From NCBI GenBank assembly GCA_029838195.1, contig JALGVJ010000054.1, forward strand, positions 1 through 20,537: a stretch of DNA of 20,537 nucleotides, in the 5' to 3' direction. Below the pieces are notes generated by a model that was given only the letters and a program-made list of their open reading frames with translations, did no database searches and was not told where the DNA came from. Of this stretch, positions 3,196-18,705 are shown piece after piece (positions within the stretch are counted from its first letter, which is position 1; each line of letters starts with the position of its first letter). Origin of the DNA: Promethearchaeota archaeon (lineage in GTDB: Archaea; Asgardarchaeota; Lokiarchaeia; Sigyniarchaeales; SOKP01). The translations under genes and the position numbers were made by a program.

Positions 3196-3903
3196 TTAGG
3201 GAGGATGCGTAAGCGGAGGGAGGCGATACACGGAGCCATATCCTCGTGATACTGCTTTTCCTAACCCAAAATAATTAGGAATTTTAAAGTTAGTTTCGAA
3301 CATACCCGTGAAGCCGGTCATTTTAATGCCCTTAAAAAGGATATTTATAGGGTGTACTTCCAATTCAACGTGAATGGGGGAGGGCACATGGTAATTCAAA
3401 TATTTACACATGGAAAGGATATTCCCGATTAATATTTTTTTTAGGAGATTCCGCCGCATGAGAAGGGAGGCCGACTTATATTTTTGCTTGTTCTTTTCGT
3501 TGAAGGCGAGCCAAGGGGTTAGAAATTTATAACGATATACTTTTTTCGAGGAGATTTTTAACGTGGGCTCGCTATAATGAACTTTTATTTTTACTATGGG
3601 ATAGTCATTATTTCCTAAAGACAATGTTTTCAAATTCAAGATGACATGGCGCAAGATAGAGATGTTTTCTTCTCCGATTGCCAAGATGATGGCGTACTGC
3701 TCATGAACATGGTATTGGATGGAAGGATATCTATAAAATAATGAATGCTGCTTGGAATTCGAGATATGATGATGCAAAGAAGGAAAAGAAGGAAATTGAG
3801 CTCCGATAAAACCTCGCAAGTGAGCCCCATTTTCTTCAATGGGACGATTCGTAAATAAAAAAACATTTAATACCTGTAATTTCATGAGCAATCCTAAAAT
3901 CAT
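3196..3903 (-). CDS. cas6: CRISPR-associated endoribonuclease Cas6 (Cas6b-like)
   Basis: LRGFIG...LHHH...YRYPSIQY N-terminal motifs, FLTPWLAFN, ILIGNILS, C-terminal G-rich loop GLGKAVSRGYG; last gene of the csm operon, start overlapping the csm6 stop. Confidence 0.93.
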   Translation of the reverse strand: MILGLLMKLQVLNVFLFTNRPIEENGAHLRGFIGAQFPSFPSLHHHISNSKQHSLFYRYPSIQYHVHEQYAIILAIGEENISILRHVILNLKTLSLGNNDYPIVKIKVHYSEPTLKISSKKVYRYKFLTPWLAFNEKNKQKYKSASLLMRRNLLKKILIGNILSMCKYLNYHVPSPIHVELEVHPINILFKGIKMTGFTGMFETNFKIPNYFGLGKAVSRGYGSVYRLPPLTHPP

Positions 3904-5387
3904 TAGAGTTTTTTAACGTGTTCTAAAATTAATTCATTAATGATGTCATACACGTTCATGAATGACACGGTTTTTTTGTTCATGAGGAAAGCAAGAAAAA
4001 TAGAAAGGTGGTTTTTTAAAGAGGCAAGCAAATCATTAATGTCTTGTCCGTACAAGGATTCAATGGTTTTTTCTGATACGGGTTCGAAGCCATGGGCGAT
4101 GATGGATTTATTCCTCAATTCTCCCAGGTATGCTGAACCTGAACTGTTCGGATATTTTGTTTCAAGAGTTTCTTTTCCCATCTTTTTATATTCATCGTAT
4201 CGATACTTATTTATTTTATCCAGCAAATCAATGATATTCCATACAGGATAATAGTGATTTCTGTTATTCAGTTGTTTCAATTTTTGAAGGGCAATAAAAA
4301 ACATGAGAGGACGATTGAGTTGCTCGGCGGTCAAATCCAACGGTTTTCCGCGAAGCGTGATAGACTCTAAATCATTCCAAATGGCAGGCTCGTGAGCCTT
4401 TAGATAAGATAAAAAGTTACCATGCTGCTTAACGTCCTCAAGATATTGAACCACGGGAGAGGATTGAAACACGCACTTGAGAATTTCATTTAATAATGCC
4501 TCTTCTAGTCGAAAAAGAAGCGCAATCAGCAAGATGAGGTTTCCTGTTTCATGACAAATTTCGATTTTCCAAAAAAGCTCTTTTATCAGATCCACGTGAT
4601 TAAGAGGTTTTGGAATGTCCAAGACTTTTAATTTATCATGGAACACGTGAGACACTTGCTTTTTATAATTGGTTAACTCAGTGCGTGCTCTTTCAAAATT
4701 GAAATTGTCCCTAGCCCGAGCATGACGCAAAAGGGATAAAAGGGGCTTGCTTCCTTCCAAGTTATCTTCGCTTAATAAGGCAATGAGGGAAGAATAATTG
4801 TATCCTTTTAATAATTCTAAGCAAGTATTTTTTAAAAAGACCTTGCGAATGGTAAGCTCGTGATTGACGGGATTTAGTGTCCCTTGATCCACGTTATAAA
4901 ATTCTATGTTTTTAGGATATAATAAACTCAAAATGATGTATAAAGCGGCATTCATTTGAGGCGTGCCGCCCGAAAGCGAGATGATCTTAATGCCTTCTTG
5001 ATTTAAAATGCTATTTTTTTGCGTGAAATAATCCGTAAAAAAACGGAAAATCCGTTCATGATCCGTGGGATTATTAGGATATTCTACCACGTTCACTCGC
5101 ACGTGGGGATGGTTTTTTTCAATAATTTTTTTCAAAATGCCGGCAACATGGAGCGTGTCGGAATTATTATAGCGGGTATCTTCTTGGTTGGTCGCAAATA
5201 AATACACGTGATTCAATTCTTTTCCGAATTCTCGAAAATACGGCTCGAGGATGGGATAACTCAAGCTAGCCTCTTCCTTATTAAAATTATTAAGAATTTC
5301 AAGGCTTGCCTGGCGAAGGTTATTCCGATTTAACAAGGATCCATTTTTTTGCACGTCCCTATTGCCGACATTTGCTATTAAGATCAT
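3903..5387 (-). CDS. csm6: CARF + HEPN cOA-activated RNase, Csm6/TIGR02710-like
   Basis: N-terminal CARF-type motifs (ILIANVGNRD, YLFATNQ, SLSGGTPQM) and C-terminal HEPN motif LRNKSIIAHG; lies between csm5 and cas6. Exact subfamily uncertain. Confidence 0.8.
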   Translation of the reverse strand: MILIANVGNRDVQKNGSLLNRNNLRQASLEILNNFNKEEASLSYPILEPYFREFGKELNHVYLFATNQEDTRYNNSDTLHVAGILKKIIEKNHPHVRVNVVEYPNNPTDHERIFRFFTDYFTQKNSILNQEGIKIISLSGGTPQMNAALYIILSLLYPKNIEFYNVDQGTLNPVNHELTIRKVFLKNTCLELLKGYNYSSLIALLSEDNLEGSKPLLSLLRHARARDNFNFERARTELTNYKKQVSHVFHDKLKVLDIPKPLNHVDLIKELFWKIEICHETGNLILLIALLFRLEEALLNEILKCVFQSSPVVQYLEDVKQHGNFLSYLKAHEPAIWNDLESITLRGKPLDLTAEQLNRPLMFFIALQKLKQLNNRNHYYPVWNIIDLLDKINKYRYDEYKKMGKETLETKYPNSSGSAYLGELRNKSIIAHGFEPVSEKTIESLYGQDINDLLASLKNHLSIFLAFLMNKKTVSFMNVYDIINELILEHVKKL

Positions 5388-5457
5388 GATGCCCCCCCTT
5401 ATATTATTATTATTATTTTCATCATTAACATCGTTATCTTTATTAATAATATACTCA

Positions 5458-6789
5458 TCAATTCCATGTTAATTTTATCCATCCGAAAGGAAATGTGGCT
5501 TTATCATCAATCATTACAAATTTCCGGGTCAAGGGAAAAATCATGTCCGACATGTTAAATTGGGGTTGTATTCTTTCTATTAAAAACACGCGTATGTATT
5601 TCTTTTTTCTGTCTATACTGCCGATTCTACAGAGCCATTGTTCATTTTTCGATTGAGGCTTAGGGGAATTCCTGTCTATATAAATATTATATCCTTTATC
5701 CCTTGTAAAATATTGCCCTTGTTTATTTATTCTATCGAATCTAAAGATTTTCCAATTTTTTACGTCAAGAGAATCGGGATAATTCAAGAGCACGGTAATG
5801 CCGAGGATGCTGGAGCCTTGTCCCAAGCGGATAATGGCCTCGTTTGAATTTAAAGTATTAATTTTTTGACGGAGTTCTTCGTAATAGGAAATAATAGGGG
5901 TTAAATTTGCATCATTTTGCTTTTTAAACAAGGATAATTCGTAAGTAATGAGTTCTTTAGAAAACTCGTTTAAAGTTGAAATGATATTCTCTTTTTGAAG
6001 GTTGAATTTACTCGTTTCTAAGATATTAGAATCAATTAATTTAGTATTGATTTTTATAGCTCCTTTTGATATAAACCCTTTTTTCAGCATTTCATAAAAC
6101 ATGGGGATGGTAAATTGCTTATTTTTTAAATGATAAACCTTGGATTCCATTATTTGAAGACACGTTTTACAATTCATTACAGTCAAATCAGATATTGAAA
6201 GGGCCCGTAATAAATCCGTTTTAGCATTCTTGCGATTTTTTCCATTCTTGCGAATTAGATTTTGCACGTGGCGGTCATTCATGGCCCCATAAGATCTATT
6301 CACTAAATCATCGAGAATACGTTTGGAGTCATGTTGATGGGATTTTAACACGTCAAAAAGGATAGCAGTTCGTAAGGCACCCTTGAGACTCGAGCCGGGG
6401 ATGTACGGTCGATCGCACGAGGTAATGAACTGATGGATTTCATTTTTTCCGATTGATCCAACCAAATCAAGGCTTTTTTTAATAGCTTCCTTCCAATTCA
6501 TTTGATAATGATCAAGAAATTCTTGTACATCCTTATTCCAAATATTATTTTGAAAATTCTCATTAATATCATTGGTAAGGTCGTCAATAAATTCGATAGG
6601 AACGCCGGATAATAGCTTTTCAAAATTAATGATGTGAATTTTATTGCCTTCCGGAATGTAATCCAGCTGAGAGTATTTTTTGCCCGACCCGATGAATAAG
6701 GGAGATAACCCTTCCATGAGTATTTCATGCGATTTAAATAATTCCTCATTGTTTTCTTTTTCCATTCCAATCTTCTCCATTTTTTTCAT
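5458..6789 (-). CDS. csm5: Type III-A RAMP protein Csm5
   Basis: LSPLFIGSG, PYIPGSSLKGALRTA, DLLRALSISD, RLGQGS, FPLTRK, PFGWIKL motifs; follows csm4. Confidence 0.92.
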   Translation of the reverse strand: MKKMEKIGMEKENNEELFKSHEILMEGLSPLFIGSGKKYSQLDYIPEGNKIHIINFEKLLSGVPIEFIDDLTNDINENFQNNIWNKDVQEFLDHYQMNWKEAIKKSLDLVGSIGKNEIHQFITSCDRPYIPGSSLKGALRTAILFDVLKSHQHDSKRILDDLVNRSYGAMNDRHVQNLIRKNGKNRKNAKTDLLRALSISDLTVMNCKTCLQIMESKVYHLKNKQFTIPMFYEMLKKGFISKGAIKINTKLIDSNILETSKFNLQKENIISTLNEFSKELITYELSLFKKQNDANLTPIISYYEELRQKINTLNSNEAIIRLGQGSSILGITVLLNYPDSLDVKNWKIFRFDRINKQGQYFTRDKGYNIYIDRNSPKPQSKNEQWLCRIGSIDRKKKYIRVFLIERIQPQFNMSDMIFPLTRKFVMIDDKATFPFGWIKLTWN

Positions 6790-6790
6790 T

Positions 6791-8014
6791 TTAAATCTCT
6801 CCTTCCTCCGCTTGATTGGGACCGATATTCATGTAAAATCCAATGCCATTTTTATATACTTCATGATGAGTCCGTGCGAATTCTTTGGAAGCAACTTGTA
6901 CCAATTTTCCTTTTATTTTTCCTGTAAAAACAGAACCCTCTTTAATGAATTTTACATCCAAAAATCTCTGGGTCTTACTATCAAGGGAGTAACAATAGCC
7001 CGTGCGGTCTAATAAGGAATAAAATTTAACGTGTTTCATGTCAATTTTGGGTGTTGCGGGATATACTAAAGAAAGGTTCATGAATTCTCTATGATTAGAT
7101 TCCTCTCCATTCGAAAATAAATCATTTAAATTAGGTTCCTTCTCTAAGGGTTCGATCACGACATCATCGAATAAGCCCGCACCCAAGCTCCTTTCTCCTC
7201 CGATTCCGTTGTCAGTTAGCAATTTAATGGCAGCTTTGAGAATGGAAACATGGGCTTCCTTTAGTCCTGAAGGATCTAGCAAGAAGTAGAATCCGGGAAC
7301 TAATTCATGAATCAATCTTGCATCTTCAGAACGAATAAAATAATTAGAACGAGTTAGATATAATTTTGATCTCGTGAAGGGTTCGGATTTAGCCTCCGAA
7401 ATATTAAAACCACATCTCTTGATGCGTACTCGTTGCTCTTCTACTTGGCGTAGTAATTTTATTTTCTCTTTAATTGCAATGAATTCCGTATCATGTTCAT
7501 GAGGTATTTTTTTTTGAACCCACTTTTTCCATCCCAAGATCTCCAAGTCTTTATCGTCCAATAAATGGGAATCGTCGAGTAAATAAAATGCATTGAACGA
7601 AAGCGGTTCTCCCTTTTGAAGTTTCCTTGCGGTATTGGATGAGAGGTATTCCACTTTCTTGAATAGTTTAGGATTTCCTTCCAAATAACTTTGTGCCTCT
7701 TCCGTGAACGTAAATCGCTTTAACGGAGCAGGCAAAAAAAATAAGGAAGATAGCTGTTTTTGGTCCTTATAAATGTCAATGTAATGAAAACAAGAACTTA
7801 GCTTGAACCATCCATCTCCCGTCTTTAAGCTATCCTGCACGGCGGCCAAAAATTCTTTTAGAACCTCTTTTCCCTCTAAAAGGCGAATGTTATTACAGAG
7901 GGCACTGAATAACGTATCGCTGTGAATGAGGGTGCTTAAATTGCCCGCATGATCCTCTCCAATGCTGTAATAGTTTCGAGTCTTAGATATTAATTTTATT
8001 AAATACATCCTCAA
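6791..8014 (-). CDS. csm4: Type III-A RAMP protein Csm4 (Cas5 group)
   Basis: IHSDTLFSAL, LSSCF, FFLPAP, GIGGERSLGAGLF, EGSVF motifs. Start is at 8014 or 8008; either overlaps the csm3 3' end. Confidence 0.93.
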   Translation of the reverse strand: MRMYLIKLISKTRNYYSIGEDHAGNLSTLIHSDTLFSALCNNIRLLEGKEVLKEFLAAVQDSLKTGDGWFKLSSCFHYIDIYKDQKQLSSLFFLPAPLKRFTFTEEAQSYLEGNPKLFKKVEYLSSNTARKLQKGEPLSFNAFYLLDDSHLLDDKDLEILGWKKWVQKKIPHEHDTEFIAIKEKIKLLRQVEEQRVRIKRCGFNISEAKSEPFTRSKLYLTRSNYFIRSEDARLIHELVPGFYFLLDPSGLKEAHVSILKAAIKLLTDNGIGGERSLGAGLFDDVVIEPLEKEPNLNDLFSNGEESNHREFMNLSLVYPATPKIDMKHVKFYSLLDRTGYCYSLDSKTQRFLDVKFIKEGSVFTGKIKGKLVQVASKEFARTHHEVYKNGIGFYMNIGPNQAEEGEI

Positions 8015-8807
8015 ACCATTGGATATTATTTATATCACGTACATTAAATGAAGTATCCGTCAATGCAATTTCAGCTTGCGAGGATTTATAAAATTCCACG
8101 GGACGATAATTAAGCTTGATATTTTCAAAACTAACTTTTCCGCTCCCGCGCGTTCCGCTTGCTCCCAAGTAATCATCTTCCAGTAGTTTTAAACCCGTGA
8201 ATAGCGTTTTTAAGAGCTCCTTGTCTTCCCCAGAATAAAGATCTAAAATGATCTCAAATCGAAATTGAACTCCTGGAGGTACCCGTTCCAGATGGCGAGG
8301 ATTAGCTTTTGCAGTAATTCTATCGATTGCATTTTCAATTTTATCTTCCGTGTATTCTAACTCGAGATTCTTAAATAACTCGTGTTTATTTTTTTCAAAA
8401 TGTTCTACATCCAGCCATGCATCCCGAAAAATTCCTCTTTCGGGTTCGTTAACATCAGGATCTCCAAAAATTTTCGTGATGTCATCAATTTTCTCTATTA
8501 TAACCTTGTCATTTTCTTTTTTAATAAATCTGTGAATGACCATTTTTTCATCAAAGTATCCTTTCCCATCGCTATCATACTCATTTCTTAATGGATATTT
8601 TGACGTCTCCAAGAGACTTCTCATCTTTCCCTTGAGGGAGCTTCCGGGGATATAAGGCACGCCTTTAGCATCCCGAATCACCGGAGAATCAATTCCGCCT
8701 ATATTTAGGGCGGTTTTGCTTCCTCCAATTGCCAAACCCGTTCTTACTACGATATTTCCCGTTATTAAAACTTTTCCTTTTAATTGTAGATCATTCGTCA
8801 TGTTCAT
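7983..8807 (-). CDS. csm3: Type III-A backbone RNase Csm3 (Cas7 group)
   Basis: TGLAIGG...IGGIDSPVIRD (catalytic Asp present), PYIPGSSLKGKMRSLLE, ENAIDR, ANPRHLERVP, YLGASGTRGSG. Confidence 0.97.
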   Translation of the reverse strand: MNMTNDLQLKGKVLITGNIVVRTGLAIGGSKTALNIGGIDSPVIRDAKGVPYIPGSSLKGKMRSLLETSKYPLRNEYDSDGKGYFDEKMVIHRFIKKENDKVIIEKIDDITKIFGDPDVNEPERGIFRDAWLDVEHFEKNKHELFKNLELEYTEDKIENAIDRITAKANPRHLERVPPGVQFRFEIILDLYSGEDKELLKTLFTGLKLLEDDYLGASGTRGSGKVSFENIKLNYRPVEFYKSSQAEIALTDTSFNVRDINNIQWFEDVFNKINI

Positions 8808-9169
8808 TCTTTTCCTCCATATGATCTGTGATAGGCTAATATAGCTTCAAAAAAATCCTTAAAAGCGATTAACATGTCGTCATTTTGTATATTTTTTATC
8901 AAAGCATCTAATACTTTTACTAAAGGTGTTAATTCCTTAAATCTTCCTTTTTGATACGCCAGTTTTGGACGTAATAAATGAAGATTCGTTTTTGCTTCAT
9001 TATAGTCATCCGGTAACGTTTTTACTACCTGAAAAATGCCTCGAATTTGAGATGTGGAAATCTTTTTATCGCTGGCACAGAATCTTCCAAATTCTTCGCT
9101 CAATGTTATGAATTGCTCAATGTTTTCCTTTTTCAGAATGGATTCTGCCTTATTTATTATTTTATTCAC
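8804..9169 (-). CDS. csm2: Type III-A small subunit Csm2 (Cas11)
   Basis: STSQIRGIF, LLRPKLAYQKGR, FFEAILAYH motifs; ATGA overlap with csm3; GTG start. Confidence 0.95.
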   Translation of the reverse strand: MNKIINKAESILKKENIEQFITLSEEFGRFCASDKKISTSQIRGIFQVVKTLPDDYNEAKTNLHLLRPKLAYQKGRFKELTPLVKVLDALIKNIQNDDMLIAFKDFFEAILAYHRSYGGKE

Positions 9170-9249
9170 TAATTGATTTTCATTTTCTTGTTTCTTTTTT
9201 TTTTTTCCTCTATTTTTACTTTTATTAAAGTTCTTACCTTGGTAAATGG

Positions 9250-11946
9250 TTAATCACTCTCATTTTCAGTCTTTTTTCTTGTTAAATAATCAGCCCATTG
9301 AATGGCAACTGATATAAAATTAATATTTTTAATACGTGAACGAGAAGATTGTTTAAATAAATTATTCTTAATGATAATTTCAAACATTTTTAGAATGAAA
9401 TTACTCAACAATCGCGTGTCCGAGTCCTTGGAATTTAATTCGGCTCTTAAAAAATAACGCAATCGCCAGAGTTTAGGGACCCGCACGCTTCCCTTTAATG
9501 ATTCATGGAGCAGTTCTTTCATGCGTAAGGAGGTGAGCTTTAATTTATGGAGCAAGGATTTTGAAATTTTTTTATTATTAATTAAATAAATTAGAATATC
9601 TTTTAGAAGGAAGGATAATTCAAACTCAGATTTATCATCTAGTAATTCTAAGAGCCTTGAGGTCTGTTCTTGCTCGCTTTCTAAATTCATGATCTCCAAC
9701 ACTTTTTCTACGTGGTATTTCAAGCATTTTTCCTCGTCATCAATTACCGACTGATATTCCTCTTCTTTTTTCAAGGACCAATCCCACGTCAAGACCGAGC
9801 CGAATAATGCTATTTTATTTTTAGTATTTTTATTTGGCGTGAAGATTTCATGGTGTTTCGCAGCATCCAATTGCTCTTCTGCTAAGGCTGAGGCTTTCAT
9901 GATTGGAAATTTCGGGTCCTCGATGACAATGCCCGCACTCATGGTAACGTTGGAATTAAATGCCGTGAATCTTCTAAAATCCCTGTATACATGCCACGCA
10001 AACAAGATTAGCTCATCCCAAGCTCCCAGAGCAAAAAGATCGTCTCCTCCCGAATAAATGATGTAAACGCTTTCTTTATAACGTTCTTGAAGCTTGGAAA
10101 TGTATCCCTTAAAGAATAAATTCAAGGAGGTACTCAAGGTAGAGATCCGAGAAAATGAGGCATTTTCTCCGAGTCCTTTTTGCACGATCAATCCTAAAAA
10201 ATCAACATCCATTTTTAGAATGCCGAGTTTCCCGTAGCCCGTTCTTTTTTCCGCCCCTCTTGCCAACTCATCATTATTATAAATGGAATTATCATTTTTT
10301 AACGGAAATCCCGTGGAATATAAAACATGTCCTAAAGTATTTACATTCCCGGGTTCGTTGATAGAATACCAAGTTTTAATATCGTTAATATTTAAATTAT
10401 TCAAATTATTCTCAAAAACCACTGCCAATTGGAGTTCATTAAAGAGTCTGTTATAGCTCCGAGGGCTATTCGTGATTTTCTTAATCAAACATGCTCCTTT
10501 CAAATCATTCGTGAGGTCGATAAACCCCTTACAATGCTCGCAAATCAATTCTTCGCGCGCAAGATCCGAAGGATCAATGAGTTGTAAGGCCGGATAAGAA
10601 TTACATATAATGCAGCGCTCTTCTAATTGCAAATCATTCTCATTCGGTCCAAAAATCTCTTTAAATTTCTCATTAAGATTACCGTCATCCGAAAAAATAA
10701 TGTCCTTAAACCTTTGTCGTTTCCTGAAATTCGTTTTTTCAGAAACCCGTTTCCAAGGGTTAAATTTTTGATAAAAAATTATATTTTCTAAAGTTAAAGG
10801 AACATGTGCCACCGCTAAATAAAGATTCGCATTAAATTCTTTTAAAAAGAATTCGTTTATTACTTTGACTTTCTCGCTGAGATATGACTCAAGCTGCTCA
10901 AAATAATGTGTTATTAAATAAAAATGCCCGCCTCCGGCAAATATGATGTTCGCCTTCGTTAGCTTGAGTTCTCTCACCAAATATTCAGCGACAAGTTCAG
11001 TCATTAGACTAAAATAAAAAGACCTTCCCTTAAGCGTCTTGCTTGCATACTTTGAAGTAATAAGATGAATGAATCGCTGAATGCCGGAAAAATCACCGTG
11101 CACCAATGCAAAAAGCTTTCGTGATTTAAACAACTTTTCTTTATCGGATCCTTTAATCTCATCTAAATAATGCGTTCCTTCATGATACAACTTTTCAAAT
11201 AAAACTCCAATATCATTTAAGAAAGTAACTTTATCGTCTTCATTAAAATACCTTTTCTCAAGATATTCATTAATAGCGGCAGAAAACGCACATGCCACCT
11301 TTAAATGATCAAATAAACTTATATCAGGCTCCACTTCATAGGCAGCCGAAGGAACAAGTTTGAGATGCGTGAATAATAAAGAATAAAGAAATTCAAACTT
11401 TAATTCAAAATCATCATCACCATTATCATACCTTTCAATAGCCGCAAGCTTTTCTTGAAATTTATTCCAATTTTGCTTGAAATTTTCTTTTATTTCTTTT
11501 TGAACCTTGCTTAGCGTATTGGGAAAAATTTCAGGGCAATCCCCTTCCATCTCTAACGCTTTCCCCAAATGATAAAATTCTTTTACTTGTCTTGAAGGTG
11601 TATTAATAACATCATGGTCAAATATTTTTATTTTTGAAAAAATAGAAGTAAGTCCCACTTTCGATATTTCTCCTCTATCTTCTGATGTTATCCGCTCAGA
11701 AGACGCTAGCCAATCCGAAAGAACCAGTATTTTCAACGGTAAATACCCTTCCTTTTGAAAAAGATTCTTAATTTCCTTCAGGTGATGCAAGTTCACTAAC
11801 GAGGATATTTCCGATGAGAAAGCTTTCTGGTTCTCAATTAATCTACCACCAATCTCGGAATGCGAGCCCCTTTCACCCGCCCGATATCCCAATTTCCCTA
11901 TATCATGAGTCAGTGAAGAAAATAGTGATTTGTCTTTCTCGTTCAT
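9250..11946 (-). CDS. cas10: Type III-A Cas10/Csm1 with intact HD nuclease and Palm cyclase motifs
   Basis: HDIGK (HD), GDFSGIQRFI, LKGRSF, GGGHF, CxxC...CxxC zinc site, KMDVDFLG, YSGGDD. Confidence 0.97.
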   Translation of the reverse strand: MNEKDKSLFSSLTHDIGKLGYRAGERGSHSEIGGRLIENQKAFSSEISSLVNLHHLKEIKNLFQKEGYLPLKILVLSDWLASSERITSEDRGEISKVGLTSIFSKIKIFDHDVINTPSRQVKEFYHLGKALEMEGDCPEIFPNTLSKVQKEIKENFKQNWNKFQEKLAAIERYDNGDDDFELKFEFLYSLLFTHLKLVPSAAYEVEPDISLFDHLKVACAFSAAINEYLEKRYFNEDDKVTFLNDIGVLFEKLYHEGTHYLDEIKGSDKEKLFKSRKLFALVHGDFSGIQRFIHLITSKYASKTLKGRSFYFSLMTELVAEYLVRELKLTKANIIFAGGGHFYLITHYFEQLESYLSEKVKVINEFFLKEFNANLYLAVAHVPLTLENIIFYQKFNPWKRVSEKTNFRKRQRFKDIIFSDDGNLNEKFKEIFGPNENDLQLEERCIICNSYPALQLIDPSDLAREELICEHCKGFIDLTNDLKGACLIKKITNSPRSYNRLFNELQLAVVFENNLNNLNINDIKTWYSINEPGNVNTLGHVLYSTGFPLKNDNSIYNNDELARGAEKRTGYGKLGILKMDVDFLGLIVQKGLGENASFSRISTLSTSLNLFFKGYISKLQERYKESVYIIYSGGDDLFALGAWDELILFAWHVYRDFRRFTAFNSNVTMSAGIVIEDPKFPIMKASALAEEQLDAAKHHEIFTPNKNTKNKIALFGSVLTWDWSLKKEEEYQSVIDDEEKCLKYHVEKVLEIMNLESEQEQTSRLLELLDDKSEFELSFLLKDILIYLINNKKISKSLLHKLKLTSLRMKELLHESLKGSVRVPKLWRLRYFLRAELNSKDSDTRLLSNFILKMFEIIIKNNLFKQSSRSRIKNINFISVAIQWADYLTRKKTENESD

Positions 11947-12020: not shown

Positions 12021-12084
12021 TGTTTCAATTTCCTTTTCTATTTACTTTAGTTTTTATAAATCAAATTTAAACTATTTAAAGAAA

Positions 12085-12128
12085 GTCGAGCATCTTCCCC
12101 TGCCTATTTATAAAAAAAAAGAAGCCGA
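12085..12128 (-). promoter_or_regulatory. Inverted, diverged copy of the leader dyad motif upstream of cas10
   Basis: Minus strand reads TCGGCTTC-N29-GCTCGAC versus TCGAGCTTC-N29-GCTCGAC in leaders 1 and 4; 12085-12097 is the exact reverse complement of 15799-15811. Confidence 0.55.
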
Positions 12129-12263
12129 AAAAAATTTTCAAATTAGCATCGTGCTTGAACAAATTGTTTAAAATTAAAGGCAAATTAATCGAGCGATCTT
12201 TCATTAAATCACTATTTTAACTCCCTTGGGGCGCTCCCGGTAAAATTCAAAAATGGGTAATCC

Positions 12264-12596
12264 TACTTCTTTATTTTCGGTTATATTACCTTTCTTTCAT
12301 GAGGAAAACTCACGGGCGCTATTTTCCCGGAACCAATTTTTGTCGAGCTTCCTTTATTAATAATTAGCATGAAAAGAAATGCTCGACAGATCCGTTAAAA
12401 ATAAAAATTTAACAAGATTGGTCAGTGTCACGTTTACTTTATGAAAATTAATGTTTCTTCAAAGAAATTAAAAATAAAAAACGGAAAGCACAAGTTCGAG
12501 GATATCTTTTCCCAAAAGCCAAAAATTAACTTTAATCGTTATGATTGCAATTTCCGTGCATTTAAATAAGATTCCTTCTTCTCCTATTTTATAAGG
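12264..12596 (+). promoter_or_regulatory. CRISPR leader 1 (full length)
   Basis: AT-rich, abuts the first repeat, aligns over ~333 bp with 15688-16021. Contains dyad GTCGAGC (12342-12348)/GCTCGAC (12381-12387) and TATA-like TTTAAATA (12561-12568). Confidence 0.88.
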
Positions 12597-14604
12597 GTAG
12601 CATCTGATAAGCCATCATAACAAGGATTGCGACAATGTAAGAATCATTGAATGCATTATTATACGTGTTGTAGCATCTGATAAGCCATCATAACAAGGAT
12701 TGCGACCTCCAAGAGTTTTCCAAACCCGTCGGTCTGGAAGGCTTGTAGCATCTGATAAGCCATCATAACAAGGATTGCGACGTAGAGAATCCAATGTCTG
12801 GTTCATTAGTATTTTATCTGTAGCATCTGATAAGCCATCATAACAAGGATTGCGACAGATCCAAAAAAGCCGAGTAGAAGCCGTCTACTCCCCAAATTTT
12901 TAGTAGCATCTGATAAGCCATCATAACAAGGATTGCGACAACACATCACCAAAAAGATATACTTTTTCCTTACTTCCCGTAGCATCTGATAAGCCATCAT
13001 AACAAGGATTGCGACCTTAGCCTCTCTGCAAGCTCCCAGAGTTGTGTAAGGGAATTATAAGTAGCATCTGATAAGCCATCATAACAAGGATTGCGACAAT
13101 CCATTGCATAACTTTTTTAGAAAACTCGGAATCGATTCAAGTAGCATCTGATAAGCCATCATAACAAGGATTGCGACTAATTCCGCACGGGGACATTCTT
13201 TACAAGCCGATATGGTAGCATCTGATAAGCCATCATAACAAGGATTGCGACCATGATAAGGAAGAGGAAGTAAATCATTCAATAAAAAAGTAGCATCTGA
13301 TAAGCCATCATAACAAGGATTGCGACATGAACCTATCAAACTTTTCCGTAATATCAGGGAGGCGTAGCATCTGATAAGCCATCATAACAAGGATTGCGAC
13401 GAAAAGAGCATGGTATCGGTCTCATTGCAATTCCCTTTTGTAGCATCTGATAAGCCATCATAACAAGGATTGCGACACCTGCGAGATGAACGGTTGAGTG
13501 ACGGCGATCCTGCTGTAGCATCTGATAAGCCATCATAACAAGGATTGCGACTCTCGAGCGGTTGATGGAGAACGGGTTCGTGGACAAGTGTAGCATCTGA
13601 TAAGCCATCATAACAAGGATTGCGACATTACAATTAAGAGTATTACTACTCCCGCAATTATTAATGGTAGCATCTGATAAGCCATCATAACAAGGATTGC
13701 GACTTTATTCTAAATTTTACTTTCATAAAAAATACATCACCGTAGCATCTGATAAGCCATCATAACAAGGATTGCGACTTTAATAAATATGGATATTGTT
13801 CCTCACTCCTTCTGGTAGCATCTGATAAGCCATCATAACAAGGATTGCGACTTAGCTCTTTCTCGGGATGATTCTCGGGAGGCACGTTCTGTAGCATCTG
13901 ATAAGCCATCATAACAAGGATTGCGACTCTTGCTCCTCGACTGGAATCGGGCAACGGATAAATTCCGTAGCATCTGATAAGCCATCATAACAAGGATTGC
14001 GACAAAAGAAAAAGAAAAAAAACTTTTTATTAATTTTTAGTTTGTAGCATCTGATAAGCCATCATAACAAGGATTGCGATAACCACAGATCATATGTCTT
14101 TTCTTGGTCCACTACATGTAGCATCTGATAGGCCATCATAACAAGGATTGCGACAGTCTCTCATAACCGATATGGGAATGTTCACATAATTGTAGCATCT
14201 GATAGGCCATCATAACAAGGATTGCGATAATGCAATTCTCGCATGAACGTTGTAGCTTGCACTCCAGGGTAGCATCTGATAGGCCATTATAACAAGGATT
14301 GCGAATTGTTTAGCTGTTTAGTTTTCGTGCTGTTTTTTATTTTGTAACATCTGATATGCCATCATAACAAGGATTGCGACTCCCAGATCTCCAATAACTC
14401 TCGTAAATACCCATCCATTGTAGCATCTAATATGCCATTATAACAAGGATTGCGACGTGGTAAACCTGGCCGTCAGGCGGGTAACGTTTCGGATGTAGTA
14501 TTTGAAATGCCATTATAACAAGGATTGCGACCATCGAGGACACTCGTAGATGGACATGTATTCATTGCTCCAGTAGTATTTGAAATGCCATCATAACAAG
14601 GATT
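12597..14604 (+). CRISPR. CRISPR sub-array 1: 27 repeats, 26 spacers (36-46 nt)
   Basis: Repeat GTAGCATCTGATAAGCCATCATAACAAGGATTGCGAC; first 19 identical, then increasingly variant; last repeat cut after 32 nt. Orientation from leader position, distal decay and the ATTGCGAC 3' octamer (type III 5'-tag). Confidence 0.98.
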
Positions 14605-14740
14605 TCCTTCAAAGAAATTAAAAAGCGAAAAGTACAAGTTCGAGGATATCTTTTCCCAAAAGCCAAAAATTAACTTTAATCGTCATGATTGCAATATCCG
14701 TGCATTTAAATAAGATTCCTTCTTCTCCTATTTTATAAGG
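14605..14740 (+). promoter_or_regulatory. CRISPR leader 2 (truncated, 136 bp)
   Basis: Matches the proximal part of leader 1 (...GTGCATTTAAATAAGATTCCTTCTTCTCCTATTTTATAAGG) and lacks the distal dyad. Confidence 0.88.
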
Positions 14741-15301
14741 GTAGCATCTGATAGGCCATCATAACAAGGATTGCGACGCCAGATGAGGAAGTAATCAAAA
14801 ATTCTGGATCACAACCGATGTAGCATCTGATAGGCCATCATAACAAGGATTGCGACTATACTAGCTTTTCGATAATTTTTAAATGATTCGTAAAAGTAGC
14901 ATCTGATAGGCCATCATAACAAGGATTGCGACGTTGCGTAGCTGCTTGCTGCCAAGTCCACCTACTCGTGTAGCATCTGATAGGCCATTATAATAAGGAT
15001 TGCGATAATGGTCATTCCACCGGGAGTGCAACCGGAGCACCACCGTAGCATCTGATAGGCCATTGTAATAAGGATTGCGATAGTATATCGGAGTAGAAAC
15101 TCGGAGTATGGATCATAATGTAGCATCTGATAGGCCATTATAATAAGGATTGCGATTTCGAGCTGGAAGACCCCCTTGGGGCTAATGGCTTGAGTAGCAT
15201 CTGATAGGCCATTATAACAAGGATTGCGATCTATATTTGTTATATATGTAATCTGCCATACGATCGATTGTAGCATCTGATAGGCCATCATAACAAGGAT
15301 T
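14741..15301 (+). CRISPR. CRISPR sub-array 2: 8 repeats, 7 spacers
   Basis: GATAGGCC repeat variant; last repeat (15270-15301) cut after 32 nt. Confidence 0.96.
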
Positions 15302-15443
15302 TCATTAAAGGAAATTAAAAATAAAAAGCGAAAAGCACGAGTTCGAGGATAATTTTTCCAAAAAGCCAAAAATTAACTTTAATCGTCATGATTACAGTTT
15401 CCGTGCATTTAAATAAGATTCCTTCTTCTCTTATTTTATAAGG
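15302..15443 (+). promoter_or_regulatory. CRISPR leader 3 (truncated, 142 bp)
   Basis: Same proximal leader segment and same left junction as leader 2. Confidence 0.88.
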
Positions 15444-15631
15444 GTAGCATCTGATAAGCCATCATAACAAGGATTGCAATTTTGCATCTTGACCAGCAAT
15501 TGACGCATTAAGCCAAAAGTAGCATCTGATAGGTCATCATAACAAGGATTGCGATTAAAACCTGCATTCTCCAATGTCTCGTTTTCCCAAAAAGGTAGCA
15601 TCTGATAGGCCATCATAACAAGGATTATTAC
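15444..15631 (+). CRISPR. CRISPR sub-array 3: 3 repeats, 2 spacers
   Basis: Repeats at 15444, 15519 and 15595; the last ends in degenerate GGATTATTAC. Confidence 0.93.
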
Positions 15632-15687: not shown

Positions 15688-16021
15688 TACTCCTTTATTT
15701 GAAGGTTTGTTACTTTTCTTTCATAAAGACAACTCTCGGGCGCCATTTTCCCGGAACCAATTTTTGTCGAGCTTCCTTTATTAGAAATGAATTCAAATGA
15801 AGATGCTCGACGGATCGGTTAAAAATAAAAATTTAACAAAATTGGTCAGTGTCCCGTTTACTTCCCGGAAATTAATGTTTCCTTCAAAGAAATTAAAAAT
15901 AAAAAGCGAAAAGTACAAGTTCGAGATAAACTTTTCCAAAAAGCCAAAAGTTAATTTTAATCGTCATAATTGCAATATCCGTGCATTTAAATAAGATTCC
16001 TTCTTCTCCTATTTTATAAGG
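15688..16021 (+). promoter_or_regulatory. CRISPR leader 4 (full length)
   Basis: Colinear with leader 1; dyad arms at 15766-15772 and 15805-15811; TTTAAATA at 15986-15993. Confidence 0.88.
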
Positions 16022-16816
16022 GTAGGAATGATAGGCCATAATAACAAGGATTGCGACGCATTCAGAAAATGCAAAAGGGTACCGGCCACGTATTCCGTAG
16101 CATCTGATTGGCCATTATAACAAGGATTGCGACTATGGCACTGTATCGTTATCCGCATCCCCACTGATATCATAGTATTTGAAATGCCATTATAACAAGG
16201 ATTGCGATCCATTTTGGAGGAAGTCAAGCAAGAAGGCATCCACTTTGTAGCATCTGATAGGCCATCATAACAAGGATTGCGACAAACAAGAATGGGACTT
16301 CAAGGGAACTTAACCTCCGTCCCATTTGTAGCATCTGATATGCCATCATAACAAGGATTGCGACACCAGGCTATAGACAATCATAAAGATCACTACGGCG
16401 ATTTAGCATCTGATATGCCATCATAACAAGGATTGCGACACCAGGCTATAGACAATCATGAAGATCACTACGGCGATTTAGCATCTGATAGGCCATTATA
16501 ATAAGGATTGCGACGGAAAATCAAGGAAAAGTCTCCTAACTCTCCGCATTAGAGTAGCATCTGATAGGCCATTATAACAAGGATTGCGACTTTCCTTTCC
16601 CACACCAAAGGCAAATCATTTCATTTTTGTAGCATCTGATAGGCCATTATAATAAGGATTGCGACTACACCATCTGTTTTACATTAGGTTTATTCCTTTC
16701 AGGCGTAGCATCTGATAGGCCATAATAATAAGGATTGCGATAAGCCAAACTCATGCGAACCACATTCGCATGAGATTATGTAGCATCTGATAGGCCATTA
16801 TAACAAGGATTACGAC
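16022..16816 (+). CRISPR. CRISPR sub-array 4: 11 repeats, 10 spacers
   Basis: Heterogeneous repeats; first is mutated (GTAGGAATGATAGG..., 36 nt); one spacer tandemly duplicated; last repeat ends GATTACGAC. Confidence 0.96.
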
Positions 16817-17367: not shown

Positions 17368-18705
17368 ATGAATCAAATGACAGGTAATAATTCCAAAACT
17401 AAAACCAATAATATTCAAAGCAAAAATGAGAACGAAATCAAATTTAAAACAAATTCCCCGCAAATATTTCATGCTTATTTATCTGCTGCTCTTCTGAACG
17501 TGTTAGTCTTAGCGTATTTACCCATTTATTTTTTCAACGTGCTGAACGTAAACCGAACGGAATTGGCTTTCGCTCAATTACTCTCCTATTCCCTATTATT
17601 CATCAAGCCCGTTCTTTCCGTGTACATGGATAAACAAGACAAGCATCCCTCCAAGTTAAAAATCTACTCAATTCTCGGAGCAATGGGTATGATTTTTTTC
17701 TTTTTCATTTCCCTTCTATTTACTCATTTATTACTGCTTTTCGGCATTCTTTTAGGATCATTTTATGCTTTCATGGCTCTCATGGATGTTGCGATTGACA
17801 AATCCATCGTATCTTCAGGCAAGAATGAAAAAACTGCGAGTAAAAATTCGCTCTTGCTCCAACTTGGAGGGCTAATAGGATCAATCCTCACGAATCTTTT
17901 CTTTTTGATCATCATTCAAAACATTCAGTCATTATCCTCATGGAATACTTTCTTTTTAACTTCCTTTCTATTTACCGCTCCCTTGATCCTCATTCTTTTT
18001 TGGTTCAAACCCCAAGCCGCATTTCCAAGATACAATAATGACAAGCAAGCTGATGATTATAATTATACAAATAATAATTATAATAATACCAAAAATACCA
18101 ACAAATTAAATACAAATTCCTTTACCGCAGAATTCTCGACCCGGGATCTTTTTTTAATGTGCTTATTTATTTTCATCTTAAATGCCGAAGAATTATATCA
18201 ATATCCCTTAGAGCCTTGGGCAATTGAACGATTAGGCCCCGAAAACGCATGGATGATTTCCGTATTCTACATTATATTCATCCTCATCAATGCGATTTTC
18301 ATTATTGTAGCTTCAAAATTAACCCACAGAATTCCCTGGAAACTTGCATTATACATTTCAATTTTTTTCTATGCATTCCTTACCATCGTGGCTCCCTGGA
18401 CCACTATATTAACCTTTTTCATTTTGATTGCGATTCAGCAAATTTTTACCTCTTTTATCATGATCTATTATGTCTTGCTCATGATACAAATTTCCGAAAG
18501 AAAAGTGCTTAAATTTCAGATCATGGCCTCATTTGGCATTCTTGGTCGGTTAGTGTTCACGCCTATCGGAACGGCTTTAACAACAGTAATCACGACCGAG
18601 TGGATCATCACCATTGCCGGCATTCTTCAGCTCACGTGCTTGCTGCCCTTATTCTTCATTGGAAAAACAAACGCTATACAATTAATTCAAAATAAGAAAT
18701 CTTAA
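17368..18705 (+). CDS. MFS-type transporter
   Basis: Two bundles of hydrophobic helices (about 12 in all) joined by an Asn-rich loop; FIKPVLSVYMDK and ALMDVAID resemble AmpG/BT1-like MFS motifs. Confidence 0.85.
   Translation: MNQMTGNNSKTKTNNIQSKNENEIKFKTNSPQIFHAYLSAALLNVLVLAYLPIYFFNVLNVNRTELAFAQLLSYSLLFIKPVLSVYMDKQDKHPSKLKIYSILGAMGMIFFFFISLLFTHLLLLFGILLGSFYAFMALMDVAIDKSIVSSGKNEKTASKNSLLLQLGGLIGSILTNLFFLIIIQNIQSLSSWNTFFLTSFLFTAPLILILFWFKPQAAFPRYNNDKQADDYNYTNNNYNNTKNTNKLNTNSFTAEFSTRDLFLMCLFIFILNAEELYQYPLEPWAIERLGPENAWMISVFYIIFILINAIFIIVASKLTHRIPWKLALYISIFFYAFLTIVAPWTTILTFFILIAIQQIFTSFIMIYYVLLMIQISERKVLKFQIMASFGILGRLVFTPIGTALTTVITTEWIITIAGILQLTCLLPLFFIGKTNAIQLIQNKKS

Follow-up and report, generated by a model that had tools for sequence, protein, structure and literature searches.

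The stretch of DNA analysed here, referred to below as the window, comprises positions 1 to 20,537 of contig JALGVJ010000054.1 from a Promethearchaeota archaeon (assembly GCA_029838195.1), which carries a type III-A csm operon on the minus strand and, after it on the plus strand, four CRISPR arrays whose 37-nt repeat ends in ATTGCGAC. The element in question is the long leader of array 1, and in particular a short word, TCGAGC(W)TC (W, A or T), of which the leader holds three copies at fixed distances from the first repeat. The gene cas10/csm1, the first of the divergent csm operon, is the neighbour of this leader and lies outside the leader itself. The genome (G000; C-numbers denote its contigs and the other G-numbers the genomes of relatives) comprises 4.5 Mb in 94 contigs, with a GC content of 33.5% and an estimated contamination of 7.9%. 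It encodes a TATA-binding protein and is therefore archaeal, so that sigma-70 promoter logic is inapplicable and TATA boxes were sought instead. The genes and the first repeat at the locus are as follows.

3196-11946, minus strand: type III-A operon of cas10/csm1, csm2, csm3, csm4, csm5, csm6 and cas6b
9250-11946, minus strand: cas10/csm1, with the Pfam domains Cas10 palm2, Csm1_B and HD
12597-12633, plus strand: first repeat of array 1, 37 nt, with the repeat end given above

The word is common to two sites, A and B, and to the complement of a third, C, where B and C are the arms of a dyad. The distances given below and in the next list run from the T of TCGAG (sites A and B) or from the start of CTCGA (site C) to the first repeat, and were taken over 17 loci in seven genera. 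The features of the leader, with its partial copy before array 4, are these.

12063-12080, plus strand: two TTTAAA boxes (12066-12071 and 12075-12080), directly upstream of site A, which open the conserved leader
12085-12094, plus strand: site A, GTCGAGCATC, a single half-site, with TCGAG at -507 to -514 in 14 loci
12107-12120, no strand assigned: TATA-like TTTATAAA plus an A run, 15 nt past site A
12313-12332, plus strand: 4-bp hairpin CGGG/CCCG with a T-rich loop
12342-12351, plus strand: site B, the left dyad arm GTCGAGC(TTC), at -253 to -257 in 17 loci
12353-12363, no strand assigned: TATA-like box TTTATTAATAA inside the dyad, the sole conserved part of its interior
12379-12387, minus strand: site C, the right dyad arm (AT)GCTCGAC, the word of A and B on the other strand, at -215 to -219
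12388-12596, plus strand: proximal leader of 209 nt, fixed in length and mostly free in sequence, with a TATA box TTTAAATA at 12561-12568
15716-15820, plus strand: copy of the 3' sub-module in leader 4, with the hairpin at 15737-15753 and the dyad at 15766-15811, without site A

Every site adjoins a conserved TATA-like box. The motif ATATTTAAAC-TATTTAAATA precedes site A in 12 leaders of six genera at a constant distance to the array, and all five copies in this genome have the CGAGCA of site A unchanged. The TTTATAAA box is kept in the three full copies of the genome, and most relatives have a run of five to nine T there. Within the dyad, TTTWTAAATA follows the left arm in nearly all of the 24 aligned copies, 4-6 nt past B and ~17-20 nt before C, while ATGCTCGA of site C shows no variation among the five leaders in alignment A6 and is found unchanged in most of the 24 good matches. 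Upstream of the dyad, the hairpin stem reads CGGG/CCCG, CGTG/CACG or CTTG/CAAG among paralogues, both halves changing together, and its 3' half, CCCGGAA, is the counterpart of an element X (CCTCGAA) that is conserved in relatives as TTTTCC-TCGA-ACC, 22 nt before B. The leaders also have in common an A-rich stretch and, after it, TTAAATA at about -42, a proximal TATA box that is likely the array promoter. The upstream regions of open reading frames (ORFs) show a weak TATA enrichment at -25 to -35; a promoter consensus from tRNA upstream regions could not be drawn, as Aragorn returned only 15 doubtful tRNAs. A conserved small ORF in the module was considered and rejected, its reading frames being broken between copies when read by eye.

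A first-pass annotation, made from the letters of the window, had drawn attention to the dyad GTCGAGC-N32-GCTCGAC, which is indeed exact at 12342-12387 and 15766-15811 and occurs in 0 of 100 shuffles. The spacing of its arms is fixed well beyond the window, at 32 nt in all five copies of the genome and at 31-32 nt in 19 matches from relatives, which together are the 24 good matches. The interior also diverges faster than its surroundings: leaders 1 and 4 are identical at only 12 of 23 distal interior positions and at ~83% of the whole duplicated segment. The GGGCGC..CCCGG element noted at 12229-12240 and again at 12314-12330, where it coincides with the hairpin listed above, recurs as said, with a further copy at 15738-15754. 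The description of 12085-12128 as a third, mirrored copy of the dyad fares less well. The 13-nt match exists, the reverse complement of 12085-12097 being GAAGATGCTCGAC of leader 4 (15799-15811), and 12085 is the fifth of five copies of GTCGAGC in the window. It has no GCTCGAC partner, and conservation there is limited to one half-site, TCGAG(C), which 14 leaders of six genera share. The GCCGA at 12124-12128 was tried as a second arm and discarded, since it would need a 1-nt deletion and the homologous copies C48a, C48b, C45 and G074 have nothing that corresponds to it. The observation was thus real and its third copy mis-described. As for the expected enrichment of the motif at CRISPR loci, the heptamer GTCGAGC alone occurs at chance frequency in the genome (108 found against ~130 expected from a GC content of 33.5%), whereas the 10-mers GTCGAGCTTC and GTCGAGCATC, and the dyad, are confined to CRISPR leaders. 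These counts, and the conservation of the 12085 site, favour the annotation on the very points that it had named as able to refute it.

The dyad is part of a ~550-bp leader that recurs in this genome before other arrays with a different repeat. Three exact copies of the dyad and two with one or two arm changes were found; they stand beside a repeat relic or in the leaders of arrays, whose repeats are of two different types. The third exact copy, on C48, follows a thiolase gene of the same strand and precedes, by ~210 nt, a large array whose repeat is different; the ~340 nt that end at this copy are homologous to 12055-12400 of the window and include TTCGAGCATC, which matches 12085. The module has a second full copy, and its parts also occur separately: leader 4 and a decayed relic on C22 have the 3' part only, and the 5' part stands alone at C48:44003-44217 and C45:5870-6060.

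C48:44520-44860: second full copy of the module (C48b), before another array

When a position weight matrix of the site was run genome-wide, the best non-coding matches all fell within these leaders, and no copy was found before the other cas operons of the genome. The dyad copies were also examined for the behaviour of a miniature inverted-repeat transposable element: all have one orientation, upstream of an array or repeat relic, and none stands at a locus without CRISPR-cas; target-site duplications were not seen, although no systematic search was made for them.

Several partial or divergent copies deserve description in their own right. The two 5' halves, which consist of the TTTAAA boxes and the CGAGCA site, stand without dyad and without array, one between csm6 and an MNT-HEPN pair and the other in tandem before C48b; DNA flanking the 5' half is also found inverted at C48:14768-15111 (minus strand), just past the end of a 118-repeat array. 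At C22:44190-44466 a decayed, solitary 3' part with arms GTTGAGC and GCTCGAG 32 nt apart is followed by a repeat-end remnant, ...TTTAGAAGATTGAAAC, and looks like the relic of a lost array. In the window, the degenerate first repeat behind leader 4 begins at 16022, which leaves 210 nt between dyad and repeat. At 14602-14745 and 15305-15448, arrays 2 and 3, both short, have a leader that consists of the proximal ~150 nt only, lacks dyad and site A and is fused directly to the truncated repeat of the preceding array. Two short contigs, C29 (1-3216) and C74 (2490-4856), carry cas1-cas2 and then arrays with short leaders without the module, with repeats of 30 nt ending in GGGATTGAAAC and of 37 nt ending in GGGATTGCGAC, respectively; given the estimated contamination, they possibly come from another organism. 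A pyrimidine-rich word, TTCC(N)TCTATTTAC, recurs at 9188-9227, 17694-17733 and 17947-17977 of the window, in some cases at gene ends, and words of this type also stand at about 12028-12046 and right after the thiolase stop codon on C48.

Outside this genome, searches by sequence identity found no genuine copy. The module gave only low-complexity or coding chance matches by blastn against 60 relatives, which at first made it look restricted to one genome. A scan of 154 genomes of the order for the exact dyad, allowing one mismatch at most, found real copies in this genome alone (the matches in G138 are coding DNA), and pattern scans returned ten GC-rich chance matches in the JGI metagenomes, two bacterial chance matches in the GTDB genomes and none in IMG/VR. 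The exact-dyad scan missed the relatives because their dyad interior is 31 nt. The supposed restriction to one genome was overturned by a covariance model (R1) of the 105 nt that end at the dyad, which matched 26 of 135 genomes of the family at E <= 0.1 and, at E <= 0.01, 13 of 151 sampled genomes of the class, all 13 of them in family f1; in other families of the class it matched 0 of 24 genomes. The same architecture was also read directly in other genera, from the leaders of arrays with similar repeats, where the interior is 31 nt and the divergence lies beyond the reach of blastn; in genus g4 two more leaders were found by eye beside homologues of an upstream gene. With both approaches combined, the dyad is found in seven genera of one archaeal family, so that the leader architecture is conserved family-wide.

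What is conserved across these genera is the words, their orientation and their distances. The intervals between landmarks are constant to within about 2 nt: A to B measures 253-257 nt, as does B to the first repeat, and in 18 of 21 loci the end of site C lies 209-213 nt ahead of the first repeat. Site A is absent in genus g9, and three leaders of relatives have deletions that leave 167, 147 and 74 nt between C and the first repeat. The arrays behind these leaders belong to at least four repeat families. Between the landmarks the sequence is free. The best ungapped identity across lineages is 0.358 for -200 to -60 against 0.355 for shuffled sequence, and 0.373 against 0.337 for -500 to -300, compared with ~0.50 for the landmark blocks. 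Spacers of constant length whose identity is at the random level imply selection on length and not on sequence. From -205 to -55, AA/TT dinucleotides show a 10.5-bp periodicity with a mean power of 0.75, against 0.32 in 825 intergenic segments of the genome; a fraction of 0.00025 of random sets reach 0.75, for a period that was picked after the fact. The signal is carried by about half of the loci, being in phase across leaders G075b, G074a, C48a, G033 and G019a and absent from those of G158 and G122, and leader 1 of the window itself has a power of 0.03. We take the periodicity as an architectural signal only in the sense of a lead. One conceivable reading, which we think rather unlikely, is that these leaders are fixed-geometry DNA scaffolds in which two free-sequence spacers of ~210 bp would be looped, bent or wrapped (e.g., by histone multimers) so that a dyad-bound factor is set at the leader-repeat junction. 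If so, the scaffold would act as a long-range ruler for spacer integration or promoter activation, for which there is no described counterpart.

Two genes of the genome are candidates for a protein that acts on the leader.

C48:36631-37458, minus strand: Csa3-like regulator gene, with the Pfam domains HFX_2341_N and DUF6293_C (winged helix), assigned by PADLOC to CARF3 (E = 6.9e-97)
C48:42088-43509, minus strand: gene X, for a Cys-rich protein of 440-475 aa with homologues in L134-L142

The Csa3-like gene stands beside cas6 in the main cas cluster, which includes type III-A genes, csx1, type I genes (cas7, cas5 and cas3) and adaptation genes. Gene X is the first of an X-cas1-cas2(-cas4) operon that is divergent from the long leader in seven loci. 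Its product, which shares a conserved CxxC...CxxC and an NPCLKNHGIGL motif, matched no Pfam, NCBIfam or PADLOC family; its AlphaFold model has a mean predicted local distance difference test score of 56 and found no fold match in the PDB at E <= 0.001.

The explanation that we tentatively favour, holding it at a little less than an even chance, is that A, B and C are docking sites for one sequence-specific DNA-binding protein on a long leader of fixed length. Such a protein would bind A (plus strand, near -511), B (plus strand, near -255) and C (minus strand, near -217), and build a complex of fixed geometry on the leader. A leader-internal promoter, at the TATA-like box enclosed by B and C, would be gated by the complex, which would sit at a set distance both from the proximal promoter and from the leader-repeat junction, the point of spacer insertion. 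Its output may be transcription, integration or both. The reading accords with the way in which the arms are conserved as sequence beyond what pairing requires: the core TCGAG/CTCGA hardly varies, and site A repeats the word on its own, far from any partner. The divergence of the leader from an adaptation operon in seven loci is also counted in its favour, as are the restriction of the dyad to CRISPR leaders and to one family, the constant distances across free sequence, the TATA-like box beside each site, the precedent of Csa3a with its leader-distal motif and the Csa3-like gene in the main cas cluster.

A number of observations weigh against this explanation. The candidate regulators follow the module poorly, since the Csa3-like gene is present in 8 of the 12 genomes with the module and in 18 of the 123 without it, and gene X in 6 of the 12, so that no regulator is tied to the motif. 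The word TCGAGCWTC is unlike the published Csa3a site TTCNTAACTAAANANGGNNNGAAA. The position of the transcription factor B recognition element (BRE) before the TATA-like box of the dyad is pyrimidine-rich, compared with A-rich before the proximal TATA box, which makes a promoter inside the dyad uncertain. From centre to centre, B and C are separated by 38-39 bp, or ~3.7 helical turns, and so do not share a face of the helix. The full geometry is missing from arrays 2 and 3 of the window and from the deleted leaders of relatives (167, 147 and 74 nt), which exist nonetheless. Finally, the changes in the arms include compensatory ones, and those on one side only mostly give G.U on the plus strand, a pattern that an RNA stem would explain as well.

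This last point leads to an alternative that we judge unlikely, namely that the leader is transcribed from the promoter-like block before site A and that B and C pair in a leader RNA of ~500 nt, as a hairpin of 6-7 bp plus a few interior pairs. Site A would then be a possible alternative partner of C, and the hairpin would act on the stability, processing or protein binding of the RNA. The block before A does resemble the proximal promoter, with an A-rich stretch and then a TATA box. Over the 24 good matches, a small and phylogenetically related sample, 92% of the cells are paired, three of the seven pairs are changed on both sides, and the covariation score exceeds that of 500 of 500 shuffles. 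Double changes run from GC through GU to AU (in two copies of G122) and from CG through UG to UA, with four pair types at the outer pair, while one-sided changes at the inner six pairs are G.U on the plus strand in six cells against four true mismatches. These counts tip towards an RNA stem. An inverted repeat bound by a symmetric protein would yield the same covariation, and RNAalifold, applied to the five copies of the genome, found the 7-bp stem only, with no compensatory pairs (and, on the minus strand, only weak, unsupported helices). The hairpins of three copies have z-scores of -2.95, -3.85 and -3.58; against these stand the active-looking C48b copy, which has a broken pair and z = +0.34, and the whole-module fold of the window, which is unremarkable (z = -0.39). 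Neither the window nor the C48 locus gave an Rfam match at the gathering score. An RNA fold would also leave much unexplained: arms and TATA-like loop are conserved as sequence, with a central TCGA that never varies, the word is repeated at site A without a local partner, and a constant length of unstructured, free-sequence spacers is not predicted. Most relatives moreover have the T5-T9 run, an archaeal termination signal, 12-25 nt past site A. An alternative hairpin between element X and site B, 80% paired, was set aside for its complete lack of covariation. On this evidence we prefer docking sites, themselves put forward tentatively, to an RNA hairpin.

It is quite improbable, in our view, that the TCGAGC sites are docking points of the adaptation machinery itself (Cas1-Cas2, with Cas4 or protein X), in which case the leader-repeat junction would be marked by the 210-nt and 256-nt distances, working either as a ruler over long range or as a scaffold of bent or wrapped DNA. 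The constancy of 209-213 nt to the first repeat in 18 of 21 loci over random sequence, the position of the leader opposite X-cas1-cas2 in seven loci and the AA/TT periodicity (0.75 versus 0.32) are all consistent with such a role, and in Sulfolobus Csa3a hands over Cas1 at a leader-distal motif. The nearest site is nevertheless 210 bp from the junction, whereas the motifs for integrases and host factors known from types I-E, I-F and II-A are found no more than about 70 bp from it, and the periodicity comes from a subset of loci to which the leader of the window, with its power of 0.03, does not belong. The arrays beside cas1-cas2 on C29 and C74 have short leaders without the module, and leaders with deletions occur.

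The first-pass annotation had itself placed 12085 in the cas10 promoter, whether as an operator shared with the array or as a leader copy in mirror image; the expression of csm would in this way be linked to the array. We now regard this reading, which is supported in part, as very unlikely. Site A does lie 139 nt upstream of the cas10 start in the divergent intergenic region, and in the syntenic G074b locus, too, cas10 diverges from a leader with site A. These are the two loci of this kind. Elsewhere, site A is preceded by divergent gene X and then cas1-cas2 in the seven loci mentioned, or by same-strand genes that include, besides the thiolase, a DUF4268 gene, cas6b, csm6 and a CARF gene, and the start codon of the upstream gene is anywhere from 139 to about 1040 nt away. 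Since its distance to the array (and to B) is fixed whatever gene lies upstream, site A is a leader landmark and not an element of the cas10 promoter, though it may serve a divergent cas operon as well where there is one. The second csm operon of this genome (C48, from 16355 onward) has no such site before it. Of the mirror-leader idea there remains a weak trace, in that A in G000 and G074 can be read by eye as an inverted TCGAGCAT-N15-20-TATA unit, i.e., half of a dyad.

That the landmarks are functionless remains, whether of an old event in which a 256-bp leader unit was duplicated in tandem or of a mobile element whose ends were inverted, is scarcely credible: A-to-B equals B-to-repeat, A and B are both TCGAGC followed by TTC and a TATA box, and the 5' and 3' sub-modules do occur separately, as described above, but words, orientation and lengths persist over seven genera while the DNA between them has diverged to the random level, which neutral decay would not permit, and the one-sided placement of the dyad copies before arrays or repeat relics, with no target-site duplication seen (though not systematically sought), does not suit a mobile element.

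If docking sites are the right explanation and a protein does bind these words, they would provide a defined cis-element and a candidate regulon for the control of CRISPR in the archaea closest to eukaryotes, and a clean test of whether the length of a leader is itself functional. As a practical marker, the words would also show where the 5' end of an array lies and which way the array runs in the family's fragmentary metagenome bins.

The closest described system is Csa3a of Sulfolobus islandicus, which binds an imperfect palindrome beside the BRE/TATA of csa1 and two cooperative sites across the TATA box and the start of cas1, acts at a leader-distal motif at -130 to -103 where it activates array transcription and modulates Cas1, and so serves both the divergent csa1-cas1-cas2-cas4 operon and the array (PMC4333418, PMC5587795, PMC9456107). 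By this precedent it is plausible that one factor may act on the array and on a divergent cas operon here as well. As with Csa3a, a short word is repeated in the leader well upstream of the core promoter (-217, -255 and -511, with the TATA box at about -42), part of it as an imperfect inverted repeat, and the sites lie beside or across BRE/TATA elements, and the genome encodes a Csa3-like protein with CARF3 and winged-helix domains. With regard to cas operons the picture is mixed: site A lies in the divergent region ahead of cas10 in two loci and of X-cas1 in seven, at variable distance, and the weight matrix found no site ahead of the other cas operons of this genome. Unlike in Sulfolobus, the word is TCGAGCWTC and not TTCNTAACTAAANANGGNNNGAAA, the sites lie much farther out and their binding is putative, and the distances are fixed through free-sequence spacers, which is unreported for Sulfolobus. 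The archaeal lineage differs, the loci are of types III-A and I, and the co-occurrence of module and Csa3-like gene is imperfect.

The arrangement around the dyad is also reminiscent of archaeal operators for TrmB-, Phr- and Lrp-type regulators, which flank a TATA box or overlap the start site: here one site directly precedes a TATA-like box, and another follows that box by ~17-20 nt, at the would-be start. It differs from them in that the TATA-like box here is a putative promoter with a pyrimidine-rich BRE position and that a third site stands 256 bp upstream. In bacteria, the integration host factor site and upstream motif of type I-E and I-F leaders, like the type II-A leader-anchoring sequence, are found no more than about 70 bp from the first repeat and depend on a bending protein of bacteria. 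They resemble the present leaders in that spacing to the leader-repeat junction matters and DNA architecture is involved, whereas the nearest landmark here is 209-213 nt from the repeat and the host is archaeal. The top-ranked papers on Asgard archaea in the literature library searched gave no description of CRISPR leaders. Conserved leader motifs and leader-binding regulators are already known in themselves; to our knowledge, what sets these leaders apart from any other is the combination of three copies of one word, equal steps of ~256 bp and spacers of free sequence.

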